Below, in pieces: positions 23,918-34,419 of a stretch of DNA of 64,000 bases (position 1 is the first letter of the stretch; every line of letters starts with the position of its first letter). Origin of the DNA: Deltaproteobacteria bacterium (GTDB taxonomy: Bacteria; Desulfobacterota; Desulfobacteria; Desulfobacterales; GCA-2748835); assembly GCA_002748835.1 (NCBI GenBank), contig PDTL01000013.1, positions 26,576 to 90,575 of the forward strand, written 5' to 3'. The position numbers and the translations under genes were made by a program. The notes beneath the pieces were generated by a model, which saw nothing but the letters and a program-made list of their open reading frames with translations, was not told where the DNA came from and searched no databases.

Positions 23918-25669
23918 TCAGGCTGCGTGGGGCATTTCTTTGGCATATACCACGGACAGCCCGCCCTCGGCGAACTGCTGTTTATAATACCGCCGCCGGG
24001 GTTTTCCGCTGGAGGTTTTTTCAAGGCTACGGGGCGTCACAAACACCACCGTGTTCACAGCGATACCGTGGTTTTTGGAAATGGCACCCTGGACGGTTTT
24101 GACAGCCGTGTCCCAGAATGCGTTGACCCGCTCTGGTTCCGTCCCTGCCTCCGGGGTTTTGCGATCATCCACTTCTGCAATGACCACCAGTGCTTCAGCG
24201 CCATCCATATTCCGGGAAAAAGCAATGCAGGTACCCAGGCGGATGGGGGCACCGCACTGGTGGACGGTCAGCTCGATGTCAGCCGGATAGTGGTTTCGTC
24301 CGGCGATGATAATCATGTCTTTCAACCGGCCGGTCACATAGATTTCACCGGCTGAGACAAACCCGAGATCACCGGTGCGGAGATAGGGCCCTTCGCCCGT
24401 ACCGGCCAGCCGTGCCTGGAACGTGGCGGTTGATTCGTCTTCAAGCCCCCAGTAAAAATCGGGAACACTGGGACCTTTCAGCCAGAGTTCGCCCACCTGG
24501 TCCGGCTCGCATGGCACACAGGTGACCGGGTCCACGGCGATGACCTGATGGTCGGCTCCGGTGGCACCGCAGCTGACCACAACGCGTTCATCCGGCGCAG
24601 CGTCGTCGAGTACCGTTATGGTGTGCTGCTCCAGGGCGTCTGCGCTCAGCCGCAAGACCTTGGGCGGTTCGGTCAGCGGCTTTAAACCGCCGACAAACAG
24701 GACCGACTCGGCGATGCCGTAGCAGGGCATGAAGGCGCTGGGCTTGAAACCATACGGTGAAAACTTTTTCGTAAACCGTTTCAGGGTAGCGGGCAGCACC
24801 GGTTCCCCCCCGTTACCGGCAATGCGCCAGTGGCTGAGGTCAAGCCCTTCACAGGCCTCATCCTTGATACGGTTGATGGCGTATTCATACCCAAAGTTGG
24901 GGCAGGCGGTATTGGCGATTTTGTAATAGCTCATGGCCTGCAGCCAGCGGACCGGTTTGAACAGGAAATCCAGGGGGGACATGAGGGTTGATTCAAATCC
25001 GTGAAACACCGGGCCCAGGATATGGCCGACCAGGCACAGGTCATGGTAGTGGGGAGCCCATACAATACTAGGCTGGTCGGATTTGATGCGGAGCATCTGG
25101 CCCATGACGCGCAGGTTTGCAATGGCATTGGCATGGCTGACTGCCACTCCCTTGGGATGACCGGTGGAGCCGGATGTGAACTGGAGATAGGCAATGGCGT
25201 CCATGTCAGGCAACGGCACTGAGCTGGCATCAGCGATTTGTTCTGTCACAGCGTGCAGGGTGATTGGCAGATCCGGCACCATGGCGCCGACCCTTTTCGC
25301 GATTTCCTCGGTGGTAAGCCCCTGTGTCGCACCACAGGATCTGGCGGTTCCCAGTATTCTGCCAAGGGGATTTTTGCTGCGCGGATTGGGAAGCGGGACT
25401 GGTACGGCCCGGACCCCGGCGAGCAGGCACCCGTAAAAGGCTTTGACAAAATCAAGCCCCGGCGGAAAGGCGAGCAGCACATTGGACCCTTGAAGCCCCT
25501 GATCAATGAGGTCGTTGGCCACCCCCGCACTTTGCCGGAAAAGCTCAGCAAAGGTCCACTCGATGACCGGACCGTCCAGGTCACCATTCTCCATAAAACG
25601 AAATGCCAGGTCATCTGCGTTTCTGACAGCCCGGTCTCTTAAAAAATCGATTATTGTCATCTTGATCAA
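23918..25669 (-). CDS. Fatty acyl-AMP ligase (FAAL-type adenylate-forming enzyme)
   Basis: Motifs YLQFTSGSTGHPKGV, GGEP and YLRTGDLGFVSAGEIYVTGRLKDMIIIAGRNHYPADIE follow the FAAL-type pattern. TTG start at 25669 lies 8 nt after GGAGGA. The alternative start is ATG 25660. Confidence 0.8.
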   Translation of the reverse strand: MIKMTIIDFLRDRAVRNADDLAFRFMENGDLDGPVIEWTFAELFRQSAGVANDLIDQGLQGSNVLLAFPPGLDFVKAFYGCLLAGVRAVPVPLPNPRSKNPLGRILGTARSCGATQGLTTEEIAKRVGAMVPDLPITLHAVTEQIADASSVPLPDMDAIAYLQFTSGSTGHPKGVAVSHANAIANLRVMGQMLRIKSDQPSIVWAPHYHDLCLVGHILGPVFHGFESTLMSPLDFLFKPVRWLQAMSYYKIANTACPNFGYEYAINRIKDEACEGLDLSHWRIAGNGGEPVLPATLKRFTKKFSPYGFKPSAFMPCYGIAESVLFVGGLKPLTEPPKVLRLSADALEQHTITVLDDAAPDERVVVSCGATGADHQVIAVDPVTCVPCEPDQVGELWLKGPSVPDFYWGLEDESTATFQARLAGTGEGPYLRTGDLGFVSAGEIYVTGRLKDMIIIAGRNHYPADIELTVHQCGAPIRLGTCIAFSRNMDGAEALVVIAEVDDRKTPEAGTEPERVNAFWDTAVKTVQGAISKNHGIAVNTVVFVTPRSLEKTSSGKPRRRYYKQQFAEGGLSVVYAKEMPHAA

Positions 25670-26043
25670 AACCGTTATCCTCCATGCTTAAACACAGCGA
25701 AACACTGACCGCAAACCGCAGGTCATCCAGATTCGTTTCCCAGTGACGGATCGTGTTTGTTTATGCTTTTCATTATGCATGTTCAGCGAGGGCTTTCAAT
25801 AGCGCGGGCAACTGGATTAACGGGTTTTACAAATCTTTTATATAAAAAGTCGGGAAGCTTGCGCCGCCAAGGTGCACTGTTTCAGTCGATCCGCTGCGTA
25901 CGGGTGCAGATCCGACCAATTGAACCCAAACAGTGAAATAATCATGGAAAAATATCCACAGATCATATAGATATATTAGTTTATACGCGGATAGAACGTG
26001 ACCTGGAAATCCGGTTTCTCTAACGATAAGGAGGATAACGGAA

Positions 26044-26985
26044 ATGAAATGCCGGGTGTTGATGTGGGCGGTAATCCTGTTCGGATGCATGGGGGGGGAT
26101 CTTTTAGCAGCCGGTGCCATGGCAGATGCGGCAGCGAATGATAACGCTTTGCCAGACCTGTCTGCCCTGGATCGCCGTATCAACAGCGAATTTTCCAATG
26201 CGGACAATGTGTTTGCCATCCTCCCGCACAAACCCAATTACCTGATGCCAGTATCCTGGAACACCCGGCCCAATACGGACCCGTATTCGGATTTGGAACC
26301 TGAATTGTCCTATGAACTGGATCCTGTTGAAGTCAACTTTCAACTCAGCTTCAAGGTGCTGCTCGTAAAAGATCTGTTCCATAACAAGGGCGTGCTCGCC
26401 TTTGCCTATACCAATCAATCCTGGTGGCAGGCCTATAATTCAGATATTTCCAGCCCGTTCAGGGAAACCAACCACGAACCAGAGTTGATGCTGGGCTATC
26501 CGTTGGGGCTGACCATGGGTGATTTTTCCCTGAGCCATGCGGTCCTGGGGCTCAATCATCAGTCAAACGGGAAATCCGGTCTGCAGTCCAGAAGCTGGAA
26601 CCGGATCTATTTATCCCTGCTCATATCCTACAAGCATCTGTATGTTCAGATCCGGCCCTGGTATCGGATTCCGGAAGCAAGAAAGGACTCTCCTACGGAT
26701 CCGGCGGGCGATGACAATCCGGATATTGACGCGTATCTGGGGAACGGTGATCTGCTTTTTATCTTCAAACCCCGGGTGGATCATACGGTTTCCTTGCAGG
26801 TGAGAAACAACCTGCGGTCCGGTCACGAGAATAGAGGCGCGGTTCAGCTGACGTGGAGTTTTCCGCTGCATCATCGTCTCAAGGGGTATGTGATGTATTT
26901 CAACGGGTATGGTGAAAGCTTGATAGACTACAATGATTCGGTGAACCGGCTCGGTATTGGTGTGAGCCTTACGGACTGGCTGTAG
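26044..26985 (+). CDS. pldA: Outer-membrane phospholipase A (OMPLA)
   Basis: Signal peptide, then HKPNYLMP, LNHQSNG (catalytic His/Ser region), SRSWNRIY and NGYGESLIDYN. These match the E. coli PldA motifs as I remember them. AGGAGGA RBS. Confidence 0.85.
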   Translation: MKCRVLMWAVILFGCMGGDLLAAGAMADAAANDNALPDLSALDRRINSEFSNADNVFAILPHKPNYLMPVSWNTRPNTDPYSDLEPELSYELDPVEVNFQLSFKVLLVKDLFHNKGVLAFAYTNQSWWQAYNSDISSPFRETNHEPELMLGYPLGLTMGDFSLSHAVLGLNHQSNGKSGLQSRSWNRIYLSLLISYKHLYVQIRPWYRIPEARKDSPTDPAGDDNPDIDAYLGNGDLLFIFKPRVDHTVSLQVRNNLRSGHENRGAVQLTWSFPLHHRLKGYVMYFNGYGESLIDYNDSVNRLGIGVSLTDWL

Positions 26986-27002
26986 CGGAAGGGACTGCAT
27001 GC

Positions 27003-27407
27003 ATGCGTAGCACAGAACAGATGAAGGCCTATTTTGAAAAGGACCGGTTTGCCGCAGCTGTTGGCGCCCGGCTCATCACCGTTTCTCCGGGATATGCCGA
27101 GGCACGGCTGATGATCCGGGAGGATCACTTCAATGCCGTCGGTCTGGTCCAGGGGGGCGTGATTTTTACACTGGCTGATTTCGCGTTTACCGCAGCCGCA
27201 AACGCCCACGGCAAGGCAGCGATTGCCCTGAACGTGAACGTCTCGTTTGTACGACCGGGCATTAGGGGGGCCCTTACGGCCGTTGCCCGGGAAACCGCCC
27301 GGTCAAGAACCATTGGCAATTATGATGTCACGGTTTCCGACCAGAAGGGAAAAACCGTGGCCCTGTTTCACGGAACCGTCTTTATCCGCAAACTCAATAT
27401 CCCGTAA
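27003..27407 (+). CDS. PaaI-family hotdog-fold thioesterase
   Basis: 134 aa. NAVGLVQGGVIFTLADFAFTAAAN and the overall length are typical of PaaI/PaaD-like thioesterases. Confidence 0.75.
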   Translation: MRSTEQMKAYFEKDRFAAAVGARLITVSPGYAEARLMIREDHFNAVGLVQGGVIFTLADFAFTAAANAHGKAAIALNVNVSFVRPGIRGALTAVARETARSRTIGNYDVTVSDQKGKTVALFHGTVFIRKLNIP

Positions 27408-27454: not shown

Positions 27455-28432
27455 CTAGCCTGTTTCCGCATCCAGTTTTTGGTTGAGCCGTTCAAGAAAG
27501 GGATGCACATCCGCGACAATTCCAAGATCTGCTTCACCGAAAATAGCGGCATGGGGATCCGTGTTCACGGCGATCACATAGTCGGACTGCCGCATGCCTG
27601 CAATATGCTGGGTGGAACCGGAAATTCCCAGTGCCAGATACAGACGGGGGGCCACCACCGCACCGGTGATGCCCACCTGACGGCTGTAGGGCATGAACCC
27701 CTGGTCGATCATGGGCCGGGATCCTGCTGCCACGCCCTGATGAAATCGCGAGGCCAGCGTGTACACGGGCTCGAGCGCTTCTGTTGATGTAAATCCCCGG
27801 CCTGCGGCCACCACCACCTGGGCGTCGGAAAGGTCGGATCCCGTCGCTGCCGGCGGAATCGGGGGCAGACAGGTTACCCCGCAGTCATCTGCCGGAATTT
27901 CCAGAATCGTTATTTTTGCCGGGGCAGCGCCTGCTGCGGGCGCTTCCTGGGCCGCAAACGTGCCAGGCTGCAGGGTCAGCACGGTGGGACCGGCTCCGGG
28001 CCGCAATTTTGCCACGCGCTGGCCGCCGAGGATGGCACGCAAAAATATCGGACCTGCTTCGATTCCGTTGATGGCGGTAATGCAGCCCGAACCGAGCCGG
28101 GCGGCAAGACCGGGGCCGAGTTCCAGGCAGGATGGCGTATGCGCCATCAGGAGATAGGCGGGTAGCGCGTCCCGGGCCCAGCTAAGGAGGATGCTCAGCT
28201 GAGCCTGGGGGTGAGATGCGTGGCCGGGGTGGGTTTTAAAAACCGTCACCGGACATCCGGTGACCCCCGCCACAGCGGCTCCTGTTTGTTCCGGTGTGTC
28301 GCTGAAGACCAGGCAGTTGATCTCACCGCCGGTCAGATCCGCGAGGCGGCGTCCTGCCGTGAGCAGCTCTTTTGATGGGGGTGTGAGCCCCTGGGGGGCA
28401 GAGGCGATGAGAATACAGATACGGTCTGTCAT
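27455..28432 (-). CDS. etfA: Electron transfer flavoprotein, alpha subunit
   Basis: C-terminal FAD-binding signature [19 protein letters not shown]. The start is at ATG 28432, preceded by AGGAGG. The track ORF extends to 28528 across the etfB stop. Confidence 0.85.
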
Positions 28433-28446
28433 GGCGGGGCCTCCTT

Positions 28447-29229
28447 TCAGGCGATCAGGTTTCGCTGGCGGGCCAGCGCAATCACAGCATCCGTCTTTTC
28501 TTCGAGTGAACCGTCTATGAATTTGCATTTTCTGCTCGCATCGGGCAGCCGGGTACCTGCGGCGGTCTCGCGCAAATGGGCACCGGCTGGGGGCAGGTCG
28601 GCCTTGATCAAGGGAATGTCCACCCGGTTTGCCGCCACGAGGTTGCGTACGTTCGGATACCGGGGCTGGTATCCGCCGGCCTGCAGCGTGACCAGAACCG
28701 GCAGCTTTGTCAGAATGGGCTGCCGAATGCCGGCTTCCATTTCTTTGAGGATCCGGATGACGGAGCCTGTATCTGTCAGGTCGAGCGCGGTGGCGCCGGC
28801 CACGCAGGGAATTCCCCGCAGGGCGGCCAGCATGGGACCGGTCTGGGCCTGCATCAAGTCTTCGGACAGGATGCCGGTGAGAATCAGATCATAGTCTGTT
28901 GCGCAGGTGGCCGCATGGAGGGCACCGGCCACATCAGAAGGTGGCAGGTATCCGTGTTCAGGACCTTCCACGTGGATGGCCCGGTCTGCGCCCATGCCCA
29001 GGGCTCTGCGCAACACCTCCTGAACCCGCTGGGGCCCCATGGAGATGACATCGATGGTGATGGACGGGTGCGTTTCCTTGAGCTGAATCGCCGCTTCCAC
29101 GGCAATGGTGTCAAAACGGTTCATTTTCCACTCGGCCCCGGGGACCGGTGCAATCCATTCATGGCGGGTATCCGGAACCAGTTGCCCGAAATAGGCGGGA
29201 ACCTGTTTGATGCAGACGAGTAGGTGCAT
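28447..29229 (-). CDS. etfB: Electron transfer flavoprotein, beta subunit
   Basis: MHLLVCIKQVP is the characteristic EtfB N-terminus, and LILTGILSEDLMQAQTGPMLA is present. The start is at ATG 29229 (AAGGAAA upstream). Confidence 0.85.
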   Translation of the reverse strand: MHLLVCIKQVPAYFGQLVPDTRHEWIAPVPGAEWKMNRFDTIAVEAAIQLKETHPSITIDVISMGPQRVQEVLRRALGMGADRAIHVEGPEHGYLPPSDVAGALHAATCATDYDLILTGILSEDLMQAQTGPMLAALRGIPCVAGATALDLTDTGSVIRILKEMEAGIRQPILTKLPVLVTLQAGGYQPRYPNVRNLVAANRVDIPLIKADLPPAGAHLRETAAGTRLPDASRKCKFIDGSLEEKTDAVIALARQRNLIA

Positions 29230-29380
29230 GGGTGTTTCCTTATGGATAAGGGGGCATACATCCGCTGTGAGGAGACCTTTCATGCCTGATGCGTTCGACT
29301 CATGAAAACCGGTATCCGCTGTTAGCGTTGCTTAACATCTGTCATGGGAATAGGTGTACTGGAAACACAGTGGAGATGCA

Positions 29381-29440
29381 AGATAAAAAACGAGCGTTCG
29401 TTCTTTTTATCTTGACAGCCCGCTGTCTCACGGGTAGTCT
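29381..29440 (+). promoter_or_regulatory. Operator-like palindrome abutting a sigma70-like promoter for the phosphatase/ACAD/kinase/SDR operon
   Basis: Palindrome AGATAAAAAACGA-gcgt-TCGTTCTTTTTATCT (29381-29412, one bulged C). It is followed by TTGACA (29412-29417), a 17-nt spacer and TAGTCT (29435-29440), 66 nt upstream of ATG 29506. Confidence 0.4.
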
Positions 29441-29505: not shown

Positions 29506-30228
29506 ATGGCCGTCTTATGGCTGATCCGTCACGGACAGGCGTCCTTTGGAACATCAGATTATGATTGTCTGTCTGATATCGGCAGGATCCAATCCGCCCT
29601 GCTCGGACGCTATTTTACGGCAGCCGGCATCCGCTTTTCCAGCTGTGTTACCGGTACGTTGAAACGTCAACGGGAAACCCGGAAAATCGCTTTTTCCGAG
29701 CTGCCTGGGGATCACGTTCCGGTTGTCACAACCGATGCCGCCTTGAACGAATATGATTTCAACGCCATCATCCACGATCATCTCACCGCCGTATGCGAGG
29801 CAGATCCGTCACTGGAAGCCTGCCTGCGGTCAGCCGCCACAGACCCCCGGGCATTCCAGAAACTCTACCACCCCATTATCACCCGGTGGATGCAGGGGGC
29901 GGTCGGCGAGGGCGGGGCAGAACCCTATGCGGTGTATCGGCAGCGGGTGCTGGCGGGGCTTGATCGGTCGGCTGCAAAGGATTCGGACGGCCGCGTTGCG
30001 ATTTTCACCTCTGGCGGCGTGCTGACGGTGGCCATGGAAGCGGCCCTGGGCCTGTCTATTGAACGGGCCCGGGATGTGGGATGGCAGGTCCGGAATGCCT
30101 CTATCTCATGTTTTACGCTGAATCCGGCATCGGAGGACAGCGGCGGCCGGAATTTGCGCCTGAAGAGTTTTAATACCACCGCCCACCTTGACGGGGCGGG
30201 CGATCACACCGTGCTTACGTATCGGTAA
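29506..30228 (+). CDS. Histidine phosphatase family protein (phosphoglycerate-mutase-like fold)
   Basis: N-terminal LWLIRHGQASFG (RHG catalytic motif). The 240-aa length is typical. Confidence 0.75.
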   Translation: MAVLWLIRHGQASFGTSDYDCLSDIGRIQSALLGRYFTAAGIRFSSCVTGTLKRQRETRKIAFSELPGDHVPVVTTDAALNEYDFNAIIHDHLTAVCEADPSLEACLRSAATDPRAFQKLYHPIITRWMQGAVGEGGAEPYAVYRQRVLAGLDRSAAKDSDGRVAIFTSGGVLTVAMEAALGLSIERARDVGWQVRNASISCFTLNPASEDSGGRNLRLKSFNTTAHLDGAGDHTVLTYR

Positions 30229-30260
30229 CCCAACTAACCGAAAGAAACAGGGAGGCAGGT

Positions 30261-31469
30261 ATGGATTTTTCAGTGTCGGATCATATCCGGACCATCGTCG
30301 ATATGATCAACGAGTTTGTGGACAAGGAACTGATTCCGCTGGAGCCGGAGTTTACCAGCAAGCCTTTTTCAGAACTGGTGCCGGTTTTGCGTGAAAAACA
30401 GGCGATGGTCAAGCAGATGGGTCTGTGGGCACCAAATTTTCCCAAGGACTGCGGCGGCCTGGGCCTGAGTATGGTCGATCATGGGCTGGTGTCCGAAGCC
30501 CTGGGGCGTACGCCGCTGGGTCATTACACCTTCTGGTGTCAGGCTCCGGATGCCGGCAATGTGGAAATTCTGCATATGCACGGCACAGACGAACAGAAAA
30601 AAGCCTACCTGGAACCCCTGGTCAGAGGGGATATCCGCAGTTGTTTTTCCATGACCGAAGTGGATATGGCCGGATCCAACCCGGTGATGCTCGAAACAAC
30701 GGCTGTAAAGGATGGAGATGCGTATGTGATCAACGGCCACAAGTGGTACACCTCGTCTGCGGACGGCGCGGATTTCGCCATTGTGATGGCCGTGACCAAT
30801 CCAGAGGCGCCGACCTATCTTCAGGCCAGCATGATCATCGTGCCCACGAATACGCCGGGGTTCAATCTGGTCAGAAACATTCCGGTGATGGGCCATTCCG
30901 GTGATGACTATGCCAGCCATGCGGAGATCCTCTATCAGTCCTGCCGGGTGCCGCAGAAAAATCTGCTGGGAAAGGAGGGCCACGGATTTGTCATTGCCCA
31001 GGACCGCCTGGGTCCGGGCCGGATTCACCACTGCATGCGCTGGTTAGGGATTTGCAAACGGGCCTTTGACCTGATGTGCAGCCGCGCCAATACCCGGGTC
31101 ATTGCACCCAATGGACAAACGCTTGCCGATCGTCAGATTGTCCAGCAGTGGATCGCGGACTCGGCAGCGGAAATAGAGGCGGCCCGCCTCATGACCCTGC
31201 ATGCGGCCTGGCAGATTGATACGGTGGGGGCCGCCAATGCCCGGGACAGCATCTCCATGATCAAGTATGTGGTGGCCAACACCATGAACCGCGTGGTCGA
31301 CCGTGCCCTGCAGGTGCACGGCGGACTGGGCATGACCGATGACACCATTCTCGCGTATTTTTACAGCCATGAACGGGCGGCCCGGATTTATGACGGCGCG
31401 GATGAGGTGCATAAATCCGCGTTGGCAAAACGCATCCTCAAATCCTATGCGGGAAAAATCTGTAAATAA
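30261..31469 (+). CDS. Acyl-CoA dehydrogenase of the ACAD10/ACAD11-like subfamily
   Basis: 402 aa. It has the general ACAD layout plus RLGPGRIHHCMRWLG and MIKYVVANTMNRVVDRALQVHGGLGMTDD ... IYDGADEVH, which I recognise from the dehydrogenase domains of mammalian ACAD10/11. GGGAGG RBS. Confidence 0.8.
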   Translation: MDFSVSDHIRTIVDMINEFVDKELIPLEPEFTSKPFSELVPVLREKQAMVKQMGLWAPNFPKDCGGLGLSMVDHGLVSEALGRTPLGHYTFWCQAPDAGNVEILHMHGTDEQKKAYLEPLVRGDIRSCFSMTEVDMAGSNPVMLETTAVKDGDAYVINGHKWYTSSADGADFAIVMAVTNPEAPTYLQASMIIVPTNTPGFNLVRNIPVMGHSGDDYASHAEILYQSCRVPQKNLLGKEGHGFVIAQDRLGPGRIHHCMRWLGICKRAFDLMCSRANTRVIAPNGQTLADRQIVQQWIADSAAEIEAARLMTLHAAWQIDTVGAANARDSISMIKYVVANTMNRVVDRALQVHGGLGMTDDTILAYFYSHERAARIYDGADEVHKSALAKRILKSYAGKICK

Positions 31470-31673
31470 CGGCCATAGGTCGACCTGTTTTTTATCGAGG
31501 TTTGGCCACAACACATCATGAAAGAAACGCATCGGTTCATTGCATCTGTTTATATACTAGTGGACCTGATGCGGGTTGTCTGATTGAATGGCGTCCGTGC
31601 CGCATCAATTCGCGGTAACCGGTGCACGAACAGAGGATGAAGACAACTGAACGGATGCGAAAGGAAGACAGAT

Positions 31674-32741
31674 ATGAATATACTGGATACGGCGAAAGCG
31701 GTCCGGACGGGTGAAGAACTGGATCTTGACACCGTTGAAACCTATTTAAAGGATACGATTCCGGGGCTTTCCGGAGATCTGGTGATCGAGCAGTTCCCCA
31801 GCGGTTTTTCCAATCTGACCTATCTGATCCGGGTGGGGGAGACAGAACTGGTACTTCGCCGTCCGCCCATCGGCGCCAATATCAAAACCGCCCATGATAT
31901 GGGCCGGGAATACCGGGTGCTGACAGCCCTCAAACCAGTGTTTGCCTATGGCCCCACGCCACTGGCTTACTGTGAGGATACCGCGGTGATGGGCTGCCCA
32001 TTTTATGTCATGGAGCGGCTCAAGGGGATTATTTTACGTAAAGACCTGCCGAGCGGCATGCACCTGTCCGCCGATCAGGCCCGGCAGCTGTGCGAAAATC
32101 TGCTCGATGTCCATGTCCAGCTGCACGAGATCGACGTGGCACAGGCCGGGCTCTCTTTTATCGGAAAACCGGAAGGCTATGTCAGCCGCCAGGTGAACGG
32201 ATGGACCGAACGGTACCGGAAAGCGATAACTGACGATGCACCGGCGTTTGAGGAAGTTATCACCTGGCTGGCGGAAAAAATGCCGGCGGATACGAACCGG
32301 CCCGTGATGGTTCACAATGACTATAAGTTCGACAATGTGGTCCTGGATCCCCAAAACCCCATCAACATCATCGGGGTACTGGACTGGGAAATGGCCACCT
32401 ACGGCGATCCCCTCATGGATCTGGGAAATTCTCTGGCCTACTGGATCAACCGGGATGATCCGGCCGAAGCCCAGCGGATCCGTCAGCTGCCCACCACCAT
32501 TGACGGCGCCATGACGCGTGAGGAACTGGTGGCGAGGTATGCAGAAAAAACCGGCAGGGATGTGTCCGGTTTTGATTACTATTTTTGTTTCGGTATATTC
32601 CGCCTGGCCGGGATCGCACAGCAGATTTATCACCGGTATTACCATGGCATCACAAAGGATGAACGCTTCGGCATGCTGATTGGGGCTGTAAAGGTGCTGC
32701 ATCAGATTGCCCGGACCGTCATCGAACGCTCGAAACTGTAG
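31674..32741 (+). CDS. APH-fold phosphotransferase, ACAD10/11 kinase-domain-like (LvaA-like)
   Basis: FPSGFSNLTYLIRVGETELVLRRPP ... AHDMGREYRVLTAL ... FYVMERLKGIILR, catalytic loop HNDYKFDNVVL, and DWEMATYGDPLMDL. Confidence 0.8.
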   Translation: MNILDTAKAVRTGEELDLDTVETYLKDTIPGLSGDLVIEQFPSGFSNLTYLIRVGETELVLRRPPIGANIKTAHDMGREYRVLTALKPVFAYGPTPLAYCEDTAVMGCPFYVMERLKGIILRKDLPSGMHLSADQARQLCENLLDVHVQLHEIDVAQAGLSFIGKPEGYVSRQVNGWTERYRKAITDDAPAFEEVITWLAEKMPADTNRPVMVHNDYKFDNVVLDPQNPINIIGVLDWEMATYGDPLMDLGNSLAYWINRDDPAEAQRIRQLPTTIDGAMTREELVARYAEKTGRDVSGFDYYFCFGIFRLAGIAQQIYHRYYHGITKDERFGMLIGAVKVLHQIARTVIERSKL

Positions 32742-32757
32742 AAAAGGGGGACGCACA

Positions 32758-33516
32758 ATGGTTGATTTTTCTTTGAATGGCAAAGTGGCACTGATTACCG
32801 GTGCCAGTCGGGGCATCGGCGAATCCATCGCCATGACACTCGCAGAAAACGGCGCGCACTGCATCCTGGTGAGCCGGAAGATCGACGGCCTTCAGGCGGT
32901 GGTAGACAAGATTGCCGCTGCAGGCGGCAAGGCAGACGCTTTGCCCTGCCACATGGGTGAGATGGAACAGATTCGCCAGCTCATGGCCACAGTAAAGGAA
33001 CGGTTTGGCAAACTCGATATCCTGGTGAACAATGCGGCGGCAAATCCCTATTTCGGCGATATGCTCGGCGCCGAAGAATGGGCCTGGGACAAGACCTTTG
33101 GTGTGAACCTCAAAGGCCCGTTTTTCCTCACCCAGGCGGCGGCATTGCTGATGAAGGAAAACGGGGATGGCCGGATTGTCAACGTGGCATCCATAAACGG
33201 CGTGCGCCCGGCGTCTCTGCAGGGCATCTATTCGATTACCAAAGCAGCGCTCATCTCCATGACCCAGGCCTATGCCAAGGAACTGGCCAGGTTCGGGATT
33301 CGGGTGAATACGCTGCTGCCCGGCCTGACCGACACCAAATTCGCCAGCGCCCTGACAAGCAACGAAGCCATTATAAACAGCGTCGTTTCCCAGATTCCCA
33401 TGGGGCGGATCGCTGTGCCTGAGGAGATGGCCGGCGCGGTGCTCTATCTGGTTTCGGATGCGTCCGCGTATACCACCGGATCCTGCATCACCTGCGACGG
33501 CGGTATGCTGGCCTGA
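32758..33516 (+). CDS. Short-chain dehydrogenase/reductase
   Basis: TGASRGIG cofactor motif, NNAA, and catalytic YSITKAAL (YxxxK). The start is at ATG 32758 (AAAGGGGG upstream). The track ORF starts at 32707, inside the previous gene. Confidence 0.85.
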   Translation: MVDFSLNGKVALITGASRGIGESIAMTLAENGAHCILVSRKIDGLQAVVDKIAAAGGKADALPCHMGEMEQIRQLMATVKERFGKLDILVNNAAANPYFGDMLGAEEWAWDKTFGVNLKGPFFLTQAAALLMKENGDGRIVNVASINGVRPASLQGIYSITKAALISMTQAYAKELARFGIRVNTLLPGLTDTKFASALTSNEAIINSVVSQIPMGRIAVPEEMAGAVLYLVSDASAYTTGSCITCDGGMLA

Positions 33517-33534
33517 TAACTGAGGAGATATACC

Positions 33535-34374
33535 ATGAAGCATTTTTCGGGAAAAGTGGCTGCGATTACCGGAGCCGGATCCGGTATCGGTCAGGCCCTG
33601 GCCGTGGCCCTGGCAGCACAGGGGTGCCATCTGGCCATTTCAGACCTTGCTCTGGAGCGCCTTGATGAAACAGAGGCCCTTTTGAACGCATCCGGTGTGA
33701 CCGTTTCAAAGCATGTGGTGGATGTGGCGGACCGGGAGGCGATCTACGCCTATGCGGATGCGGTTGTTGAAACCCATGGCCGGGTGAATCTGATTTTCAA
33801 CAATGCCGGTGTGAGCCTCGTGGCGTCATTTAAAGATATGAGTGACGCGGATTTTAACTGGATGATGAATATCAATTTCTGGGGTGTCGTTCACGGGACC
33901 CGGGCGTTTCTTCCCCACCTGCAGGCATCCGGGGACGGTCACATTGTGAATATCTCCAGTTTGTTCGGTTTGCTCGCTGTCCCTACGCAGTCGGCATACA
34001 ACGCAGCGAAATTTGCCGTGAGGGGCTACACGGAAGCCCTGCGCATGGAACTGGAGATGTATGATGCGCCGGTCAGCGCCAGCAGTGTGCATCCCGGCGG
34101 TATTCGCACAAATATCATGGCCGACGGACGGATCGCTACACAGACCGGTCTGTTTAAGGATCGCGAAAAAGCCAAACGGGGATTTGACAAGATCGCCATC
34201 ACAACCGCTGCCGAGGCGGCGGAGATCATCCTCAAAGGGGTGCGGAAAAACAAGCGCCGGATTCTGGTGGGGAAAGACGCTGTGATACTCGATCTGGTGC
34301 AGCGGTTCTTCCCCCAGGGATACCAGAAGCTCGTTACAAAAAATGCCCGAAAAACCTACCTGGATCGTCGGTAA
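33535..34374 (+). CDS. Short-chain dehydrogenase/reductase
   Basis: TGAGSGIGQA, NNAG and YNAAKFAV (YxxxK). GAGGAG RBS. Confidence 0.85.
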   Translation: MKHFSGKVAAITGAGSGIGQALAVALAAQGCHLAISDLALERLDETEALLNASGVTVSKHVVDVADREAIYAYADAVVETHGRVNLIFNNAGVSLVASFKDMSDADFNWMMNINFWGVVHGTRAFLPHLQASGDGHIVNISSLFGLLAVPTQSAYNAAKFAVRGYTEALRMELEMYDAPVSASSVHPGGIRTNIMADGRIATQTGLFKDREKAKRGFDKIAITTAAEAAEIILKGVRKNKRRILVGKDAVILDLVQRFFPQGYQKLVTKNARKTYLDRR

Positions 34375-34380
34375 AATAAC

Positions 34381-34419
34381 AGGCGGCAGCCCATACCCGG
34401 CTGCCGCCTTTGCGTTTTT
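34381..34419 (+). terminator. Rho-independent terminator ending the ACAD/kinase/SDR operon
   Basis: 11-bp stem AGGCGGCAGCC / GGCTGCCGCCT with loop CATACCC, followed by TTGCGTTTTT. Confidence 0.75.

Follow-up and report, generated by a model that had tools for sequence, protein, structure and literature searches.

The route by which 4-hydroxy fatty acids enter beta-oxidation has been worked out only between 2017 and 2025, through enzymes that mammals carry as fusions and some bacteria as separate genes. Here we compare with these systems an operon found in a 64,000-nt stretch of contig PDTL01000013.1 from the assembly of a sulfate-reducer-type Deltaproteobacteria bacterium (GCA_002748835.1), hereafter the window, to which all coordinates refer. 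The operon spans 29506-34374 on the + strand and consists of five open reading frames (ORFs), which encode a histidine-phosphatase-fold protein (HisP), an acyl-CoA dehydrogenase (ACAD), an APH-fold kinase and two short-chain dehydrogenases/reductases (SDR1 and SDR2). We consider it probable that this operon, together with a divergently transcribed pair of electron-transfer flavoprotein (ETF) genes, etfBA, feeds 4-hydroxyacyl-CoAs, and probably 4-oxoacyl-CoAs, into beta-oxidation by the known phospho-elimination route.

In mouse ACAD11, the active-site helix of the dehydrogenase carries an upstream arginine and an HCMR motif (R626, H634 and R637), and the catalytic aspartate is D753; Rashan et al. 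found the upstream Arg, HCMR and catalytic Asp to be specific to, and essential for, the ACAD10/11/LvaC enzymes (PMC12440821). The levulinate operon lvaABCDE of Pseudomonas putida KT2440 distributes the same activities over split genes (Rand et al., 2017, as described in PMC12440821, PMC11342911 and PMC6692424), and its kinase, LvaA, shares only 29% identity with the kinase domains of ACAD10/11 (PMC11342911). In Burkholderia pseudomallei, a stand-alone kinase (Q63VL0) and an ACAD each replaced the matching ACAD10 domain in vitro, and the pair converted 4-hydroxyhexanoyl-CoA by way of a 4-phospho intermediate to a 2-enoyl-CoA (Paquay et al., 2024; PMC11342911). Both published studies describe phospho-elimination as redox-neutral, with no need for an external electron acceptor (PMC12440821, PMC11342911). 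A levulinate-induced lva-like cluster of Pseudomonas citronellolis LA18T further includes a histidine phosphatase gene between its lvaA and lvaC homologues, and its authors raised in 2019 the question of whether this phosphatase acts on 4-phosphovaleryl-CoA (PMC6692424). Finally, the kinase homologue of Caldalkalibacillus thermarum phosphorylates 1-O-alkylglycerols such as chimyl alcohol in vitro and is stimulated by acetyl-CoA (preprint 10.1101/2025.09.10.675409).

All five ORFs of the operon lie on the + strand at the positions assigned to them in an initial annotation of the window, and each received a Pfam family. With the lva operon they share a kinase (LvaA), a phosphate-eliminating ACAD (LvaC) and an SDR of the kind that makes 4-hydroxyacyl-CoA (LvaD), and hence a logic of activating, reducing, phosphorylating and eliminating; the phosphatase-fold protein, the second SDR and the ETF are additions. 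A Pfam and NCBIfam scan of the operon found neither an LvaE-like CoA ligase nor a sigma-54 LvaR gene, and the relatives of the operon use a TetR-family regulator. As in Burkholderia, kinase and ACAD are separate genes of the ACAD10/11 type, but the locus differs from that pair, as published, in its anaerobic Desulfobacterota-type host, its phosphatase-fold gene, its two SDRs and its divergent private EtfBA. Similar in composition is the P. citronellolis cluster, with a kinase, a histidine phosphatase family protein, an LvaC homologue and an SDR, and no LvaB; that organism, in contrast, is an aerobic gammaproteobacterium, its cluster has a PrpR/LvaR-type regulator, and no ETF has been reported there. 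The histidine phosphatase gene of that cluster also shows that the initial annotation erred in stating that the phosphatase has no lva counterpart.

The mammalian enzymes, ACAD10 (HAD-kinase-ACAD) and ACAD11 (kinase-ACAD; PDB 2wbi, 8v3u, 8v3v), belong to the same families and have the same catalytic and phosphate-binding residues. They differ in being fused, in the order kinase-then-ACAD, and in needing no ETF; here the genes are split and run ACAD-then-kinase, like most bacterial fusions. ACAD10 also carries a phosphatase-fold domain, but one of the HAD fold, which is unrelated to the histidine phosphatase fold. The initial annotation had presented the locus as a split bacterial counterpart of ACAD10/11. 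The pair is real, but neither the pathway nor a split bacterial pair is new, both the Burkholderia pair (PMC11342911) and the split lva operon being known. The features that set this variant apart are a Ser-type phosphatase partner, a clade-specific ETF and control by TetR and an operator, which in this genome is broken.

Family assignment of the dehydrogenase and the kinase

The ACAD (30261-31469, + strand, 402 aa) has the three-domain acyl-CoA dehydrogenase fold, with N-terminal, middle and C-terminal domains (Pfam Acyl-CoA_dh_N, _M and _1) each scoring above cut-off. Searched against the PDB with phmmer, it matched human and mouse ACAD11 at 304-312 bits and Mycobacterium abscessus 4hr3 at 282 bits; the other 79 ACAD structures that it matched scored at most 169 bits, leaving a gap of more than 110 bits. 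The block RLGPGRIHHCMR, which the initial annotation had read as a sign of ACAD10/11, occupies residues 249-260 (31005-31040) and supplies both R249 and the H257-C258-M259-R260 motif. Downstream of it, DGADE forms part of YDGADEVH, which aligns with DGPDEVH of ACAD11 and places Asp378 (codon 31392-31394) at the catalytic-base position, where conventional ACADs carry a catalytic Glu. Given this score separation and the presence of all diagnostic residues checked, the protein clearly groups by sequence with the ACAD10/11-LvaC type, as a putative 4-phosphoacyl-CoA phosphate-eliminating enzyme. A search for relatives of nearly the same length returned only proteins at least 79% identical to it.

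The kinase (31674-32741, + strand, 355 aa; Pfam APH, 179 bits) gave a similarly clean separation, with phmmer scores against the PDB of 325 bits for 9o56, 187 for the ACAD11 kinase domain and 170 for 3dxp, and of 47 for the next match. Its key residues are R62, E79, H214-N-D216-Y-K218, N221 and D237-W-E239. In a 22-sequence alignment, HNDYKFDN (214-221) and DWE (237-239) are invariant, and so are R78 and R172, which align with mouse ACAD11 R86 and R176, two residues that hold the CoA moiety according to published modelling only (PMC12440821). R62, the beta3 Arg that replaces a Lys, and E79, the alphaC Glu, align with R61 and E78 of the C. thermarum enzyme. We identify 9o56, by its matching residue numbers, as probably this C. 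thermarum ACAD10-kinase homologue: each of its residues R61, E78, D214, K216, N219 and D234-W-E236 is matched by an identical one in our kinase. The closest solved relative, identical in its catalytic residues, is thus probably the enzyme reported to be an alkylglycerol kinase, whereas the gene context of the operon argues for acyl-CoA substrates. On scores and diagnostic residues the kinase is clearly of the ACAD10/11 N-domain/LvaA type, and we regard it as a putative 4-hydroxyacyl-CoA kinase. Some relatives carry two tandem kinase copies (L029, 8869-11065; G043 C60, 110563-112783; G369 C2, 204228-206451).

The assignment of both enzymes to the ACAD10/11-LvaC/LvaA families, already proposed in the initial annotation, therefore stands on score separation and on every diagnostic residue examined. 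By its PDB scores and the R249/HCMR/Asp378 set, the ACAD does not group with conventional FadE enzymes.

A conserved module and its partners

We examined the gene neighborhoods of 80 loci from species-representative genomes whose kinase is at least 60% identical to ours, counting for each gene only those loci with enough flanking sequence. The loci come from Desulfobacterales, Syntrophaceae, Spirochaetota, metagenome-assembled genomes (MAGs) labelled Bacteriovoracaceae, Syntrophomonas and others. In 67 of 69 loci the ACAD comes just before the kinase; HisP lies upstream of the ACAD in 39 of 63 and SDR1 downstream of the kinase in 33 of 63, and 44 loci have a TetR-family gene (encoding about 230 aa) between ACAD and kinase. 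An EtfBA pair precedes the module in 46 of 57 loci and is divergent in 44. The unit conserved across these roughly 80 anaerobe loci is a divergent EtfBA followed by phosphatase-ACAD-TetR-kinase-SDR1, with a palindromic candidate operator. Some of the operons take in further beta-oxidation genes, encoding a 3-hydroxyacyl-CoA dehydrogenase (24 loci), a long ACAD of the long-chain type with an Acyl-CoA_dh_C domain (11) or an enoyl-CoA hydratase (9). One metagenomic locus has the parts of the module in a different arrangement, in which a gene for an acyl-CoA synthetase separates etfB from etfA.

Natural gene fusions connect many of the same parts. Among longer proteins we found 76 fusions of the kinase, most of them ACAD-kinase proteins that match the gene order of the operon; others are SDR-kinase, SDR-kinase-phosphatase, AMP-binding ligase-kinase and kinase-CoA-transferase III proteins. 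In three proteins (P0323, P0327, P0328) the kinase is followed by a domain 53-56% identical to SDR1. Together with the beta-oxidation neighbors, these fusions favor CoA-thioester substrates and disfavor an alkylglycerol-kinase reading for the bacterial clade. The synteny and the fusions also bear out the proposal of the initial annotation that the SDRs and the phosphatase-fold protein are functional partners of the pair. Individual proteins join the kinase to a family III CoA-transferase, AMP-binding CoA ligases, a GDSL lipase or a zinc alcohol dehydrogenase (P0354, P0349, P0355, P0346, P0344). In Geodermatophilus/Blastococcus, six proteins (P0331, P0335, P0337, P0338, P0341, P0342) combine it with an SGL/strictosidine-synthase-like beta-propeller, a lactonase-type fold, which hints at gamma-lactones as a natural source of 4-hydroxy acids.

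HisP (29506-30228, + strand, 240 aa; Pfam His_Phos_1 PF00300, 66 bits) represents a distinct subfamily with the signature RHGQASFG, FTSGG and a C-terminal TYR. Its AlphaFold 2 model (pLDDT 92, pTM 0.90) was matched by Foldseek to solved histidine phosphatases at 15-22% identity, with a probability of 1.0 to PspA, PGAM5, CobC and dPGM. R8, the nucleophile H9, R54 and E82 align with the RHG motif, the Arg of LKRAIHT and the Glu of NERHYG in Escherichia coli GpmA. The second catalytic His, found in the AAHGNS motif of E. coli GpmA, is not present in HisP, where an alignment with GpmA and GpmB places Ser169 in that column. A profile search of 1.84 billion cluster representatives yielded 1532 relatives at E <= 1e-30, and in the best 150, which we inspected, R8, H9, R54, E82 and Ser169 were invariant (150/150). 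The Ser-for-His replacement also occurs in the HisP forms of Gemmatales and in fused ones. The last residue, Arg240, is likewise invariant, and Tyr239 is conserved in at least 90% of sequences (window 30217-30225). Because the C-terminal tail of related mutases forms a cap over the active site, the TYR tail of HisP may compensate for the missing His. Whether HisP is catalytically competent as a phosphatase is uncertain on these residues, and the suggestion in the initial annotation that it proofreads or resets the phospho-intermediate is, with the canonical second His replaced by Ser169, only a guess.

The distribution of HisP ties it to the module. Of 401 sampled genomes of the phylum, 39 encode HisP and 59 the kinase; both are present in 37 of the 39 HisP genomes, and the two genes lie within 4 kb of each other in 29 of the 39, counts that are descriptive, as related genomes are not independent. 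In a sample of 301 genomes from the phylum of a 'Solirubrobacterales' MAG, HisP occurred in 4. The HisP signature adjoins ACAD-kinase fusions in a Gemmatales genome and on one other contig, and it is found inside a natural SDR-kinase-phosphatase fusion protein whose gene neighbors encode an HCMR-type ACAD and another SDR. Two loci of one family (L095, G048 C12; L096, G086 C56) have EtfBA|HisP-ACAD-TetR or HisP-TetR units without the kinase, a more distant kinase being encoded on another contig. These kinase-free units argue that HisP is tied to the ETF/ACAD side at least as tightly as to the kinase. HisP is thus a real, widespread and dispensable partner in the module.

The two SDRs that flank the pair in the initial annotation fared differently, SDR1 being conserved in the module and SDR2 a lineage-specific addition. 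SDR1 is a classical FabG/DHRS4-like short-chain reductase (32758-33516, + strand; Pfam adh_short_C2, 212 bits; NCBIfam NF005446, 420 bits, above cut-off). Its ORF is open from 32707, and translation most likely starts at ATG 32758, which has a GGGGG ribosome-binding site, rather than at TTG 32707. From gene positions, we judge kinase, ACAD and SDR1 to be co-transcribed. As the conserved SDR of the module, SDR1 is a candidate 4-oxoacyl-CoA reductase analogous to LvaD, an equivalence drawn from family membership only. Its top PDB match is DHRS4 (168 bits). DHRS4 is a peroxisomal carbonyl reductase of mammals, and ACAD11 is peroxisomal too; since DHRS4 is also the best solved relative of SDR1, it may be an LvaD-like partner in mammals. 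We rejected a role for SDR1 as a 2,4-dienoyl-CoA reductase, no DECR structure being among its 60 best PDB matches.

SDR2 (33535-34374, + strand, 279 aa; Pfam adh_short, 169 bits) is a second classical SDR. It was the best match in only 2 of the 80 loci and is absent from the nearest relatives within the same taxonomic order, which do have TetR; its presence in the window is a lineage-specific gain. Weakly similar SDR domains (30-41% identity) precede the kinase in P0325, P0332, P0336, P0347 and P0348, and in P0340 one within the same range lies between an ACAD fragment and the kinase.

Both ETF genes are on the - strand, divergent from the operon. EtfB (28447-29283; Pfam ETF) has human ETF-beta as its top solved relative, at 82 bits, and EtfA (27455-28528; Pfam ETF_alpha and ETF) human ETF-alpha, at 127 bits; the etfA ORF runs into the end of etfB, so that its real start is probably near 28440. 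Against the PDB, the non-bifurcating ETFs of human and Paracoccus ranked highest, only 7-16 bits above bifurcating ones. The small genome has three Etf pairs, each beside an ACAD gene; the other two lie at C23 6382-9404 and C26 43602-49609, each next to a different ACAD, and the C26 pair has a TetR-family gene upstream. ETF was absent from the four module contexts examined outside the anaerobic clade. The link between EtfAB and the operon drawn in the initial annotation is thus upheld by the synteny of the related loci, but the role given to it there, that of electron acceptor, is not one that the published reaction needs.

Candidate operator, regulator and neighboring genes

Between etfB and hisP lies a near-perfect 36-bp palindrome (29379-29414; CAAGATAAAAA-ACGAGCGTTCGTTC-TTTTTATCTTG) with perfect arms of 11 nt, which overlaps a TTGACA -35 hexamer (29412-29417). 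About 18 related, TetR-encoding loci show its TCAAGAAAAAA..CGAACGTTCG..TTTTTTCTTGA pattern at the same place, between the EtfB and HisP genes. In the window, the place of the TetR gene is taken by a 204-nt non-coding gap between ACAD and kinase (31470-31673), with a weak hairpin and T-run at 31470-31482, in which we found no TetR remnant. The 85%-complete assembly likewise yielded no TetR orthologue, its best match scoring 46 bits, whereas family members score 302 bits or more. The palindrome is likely a TetR operator that has been retained without a repressor gene at the locus. In relatives, the repressor would act on the conserved palindrome to set expression; here, with its gene missing from the locus, expression of the operon may be constitutive, or unassembled DNA may encode the repressor. 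The operon ends at a strong intrinsic terminator-like hairpin (34381-34409, + strand) of 11 pairs, 9 of them G-C, followed by a T-run.

Further upstream are genes for a PaaI-type thioesterase (27003-27407), an outer-membrane phospholipase A (OMPLA; 26044-26985) and a fatty-acyl-AMP ligase (FAAL; 23918-25669). The initial annotation had listed EtfAB, the thioesterase and the ligase, all of which Pfam and NCBIfam confirm; OMPLA was missing from its gene list. It had also counted the thioesterase and the ligase toward the route, which the comparison does not bear out: FAAL, OMPLA and PaaI lie beside the module in none of the 80 related loci. We therefore reject all three as pathway members and regard them as probably unrelated neighbors. 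The stretch 23918-27407 looks like an independent lipid-related neighborhood.

Function of the operon

The reading proposed above builds on family membership, the full set of diagnostic residues, conserved synteny and gene fusions, and its chemistry would be that of the published mammalian, Pseudomonas and Burkholderia enzymes. Homology and gene context give good support to its core, a putative kinase and phosphate-eliminating ACAD with an SDR that would supply the 4-hydroxyacyl-CoA. SDR1, acting like LvaD and perhaps joined by SDR2, would interconvert 4-oxo- and 4-hydroxyacyl-CoA; a pair of SDRs could also invert the stereocenter, given the preference of this kinase family for one enantiomer. 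The APH-fold kinase would then phosphorylate the 4-hydroxyl using ATP, and the ACAD would eliminate the phosphate by means of Asp378, the HCMR helix and its bound FAD to give a 2-enoyl-CoA. HisP would be a conserved accessory; our guess is that it hydrolyses or otherwise handles 4-phospho intermediates and serves as a safety valve against CoA trapping, as the unrelated HAD domain of ACAD10 might. Each cycle must start with an oxidised ACAD flavin, and in a very reducing cytoplasm the private ETF may maintain or restore that state; alternatively, it may take up electrons when a dienoyl intermediate escapes.

Several observations weigh against this reading. The closest solved homologue of the kinase is numbered like the C. 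thermarum enzyme, a 1-O-alkylglycerol kinase in vitro. A dedicated ETF is not accounted for by the published reaction, which is redox-neutral and proceeds without an electron acceptor, and the EtfA of the module is very divergent (median identity 37.5%), a 54-row quick tree giving long branches and no resolved clade. The operon has no CoA ligase or CoA-transferase of its own, and the neighboring ligase is of the FAAL type and does not accompany the module in related loci. Nor is an LvaB-like small subunit evident, in that the operon has no spare small ORF; no sequence search with LvaB was made. HisP, finally, has no canonical second His and is missing from about a third of the related loci; it is thus not essential and perhaps not a phosphatase.

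The first of these points invites a reading in which the operon salvages ether lipids or glycerolipids, the kinase being a 1-O-alkylglycerol kinase, as ACAD10 and several prokaryotic homologues are reported to be, or a monoacylglycerol kinase, HisP a lipid-phosphate phosphatase in the manner of the ACAD10 HAD domain, and the ACAD having a separate or unassigned role. Beyond the 325-bit match to 9o56, with its C. thermarum numbering and the acetyl-CoA-stimulated activity of that enzyme on chimyl alcohol, it can draw on the phosphatase that accompanies the kinase both here and in ACAD10, and on the OMPLA and fatty-acyl-AMP ligase genes upstream within the window. Ether lipids also occur in sulfate reducers. 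Yet none of the 80 related loci has the upstream lipid genes, and the conserved partners in the module are CoA-ester enzymes (ACAD, ETF, 3-hydroxyacyl-CoA dehydrogenase and enoyl-CoA hydratase), with no glycerolipid enzyme among them; natural fusions join the kinase to ACADs, CoA ligases and a CoA-transferase, and stimulation by acetyl-CoA is equally consistent with a CoA-binding substrate pocket. We regard lipid salvage as quite unlikely. More improbable still is that the operon serves ordinary beta-oxidation, with a FadE-like ACAD passing electrons to the neighboring ETF and the kinase and phosphatase as unrelated neighbors. The dedicated EtfBA beside the ACAD, an arrangement shared with the two other ACAD-Etf pairs of the genome, and the slightly greater similarity of both Etf subunits to classical non-bifurcating ETFs would fit it, but the enzyme has Asp378 in place of the catalytic Glu and carries the polar R...HCMR helix, which is specific to ACAD10/11/LvaC, ordinary ACADs score more than 110 bits lower, and the ACAD adjoins the kinase in 67 of 69 loci and is fused to it in dozens of bacteria.

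A narrower version of the phospho-elimination route, which we also think unlikely, would have the operon convert 4-hydroxybutyryl-CoA to crotonyl-CoA in an ATP-dependent, oxygen-insensitive reaction that replaces the radical 4-hydroxybutyryl-CoA dehydratase. Its substrate would derive from succinate semialdehyde, gamma-aminobutyric acid or 4-hydroxybutyrate, and no medium- or long-chain 4-hydroxy fatty acids would be fed in. The chemistry works on C4-C11 4-hydroxy acids in mammals (literature summarised in PMC12440821), C4 metabolism is central to the hosts, which are strict anaerobes, and the module is often short and self-contained. The long-chain-type ACAD in 11 loci and the 3-hydroxyacyl-CoA dehydrogenase in 24 speak against it, however, and neither a succinate-semialdehyde or 4-hydroxybutyrate dehydrogenase nor a CoA-transferase is conserved nearby; chain-length preference is not itself readable from sequence. 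Entry of 4-hydroxy and probably 4-oxo acyl-CoAs in general into beta-oxidation thus keeps our preference.

On its own, the window adds a further example of a pathway already known. Its wider context bears on the role of the kinase domain, which is debated: a 2025-26 preprint assigns it to ether-lipid salvage, but bacterial gene contexts argue for CoA-ester substrates. The conserved, likely TetR operator offers a handle for finding the natural inducer. Two conserved parts stand out, a phosphatase fold with an altered active site that recurs across phyla and a dedicated ETF confined to the anaerobic clade. As a tentative and rather doubtful proposal, the ACAD10/11-type enzyme of strict anaerobes is not self-sufficient and needs both of these helpers, a private ETF and a Ser-for-His HisP that handles the 4-phospho intermediate. 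The ETF may reset or poise the flavin or drain electrons from an escaped 2,4-dienoyl intermediate, and HisP may relieve CoA trapping or be a phospho-carrier. If this were so, HisP and the HAD domain of ACAD10, which are unrelated, would have converged, and 4-hydroxy acid catabolism would universally include a third component with phosphatase-type activity.

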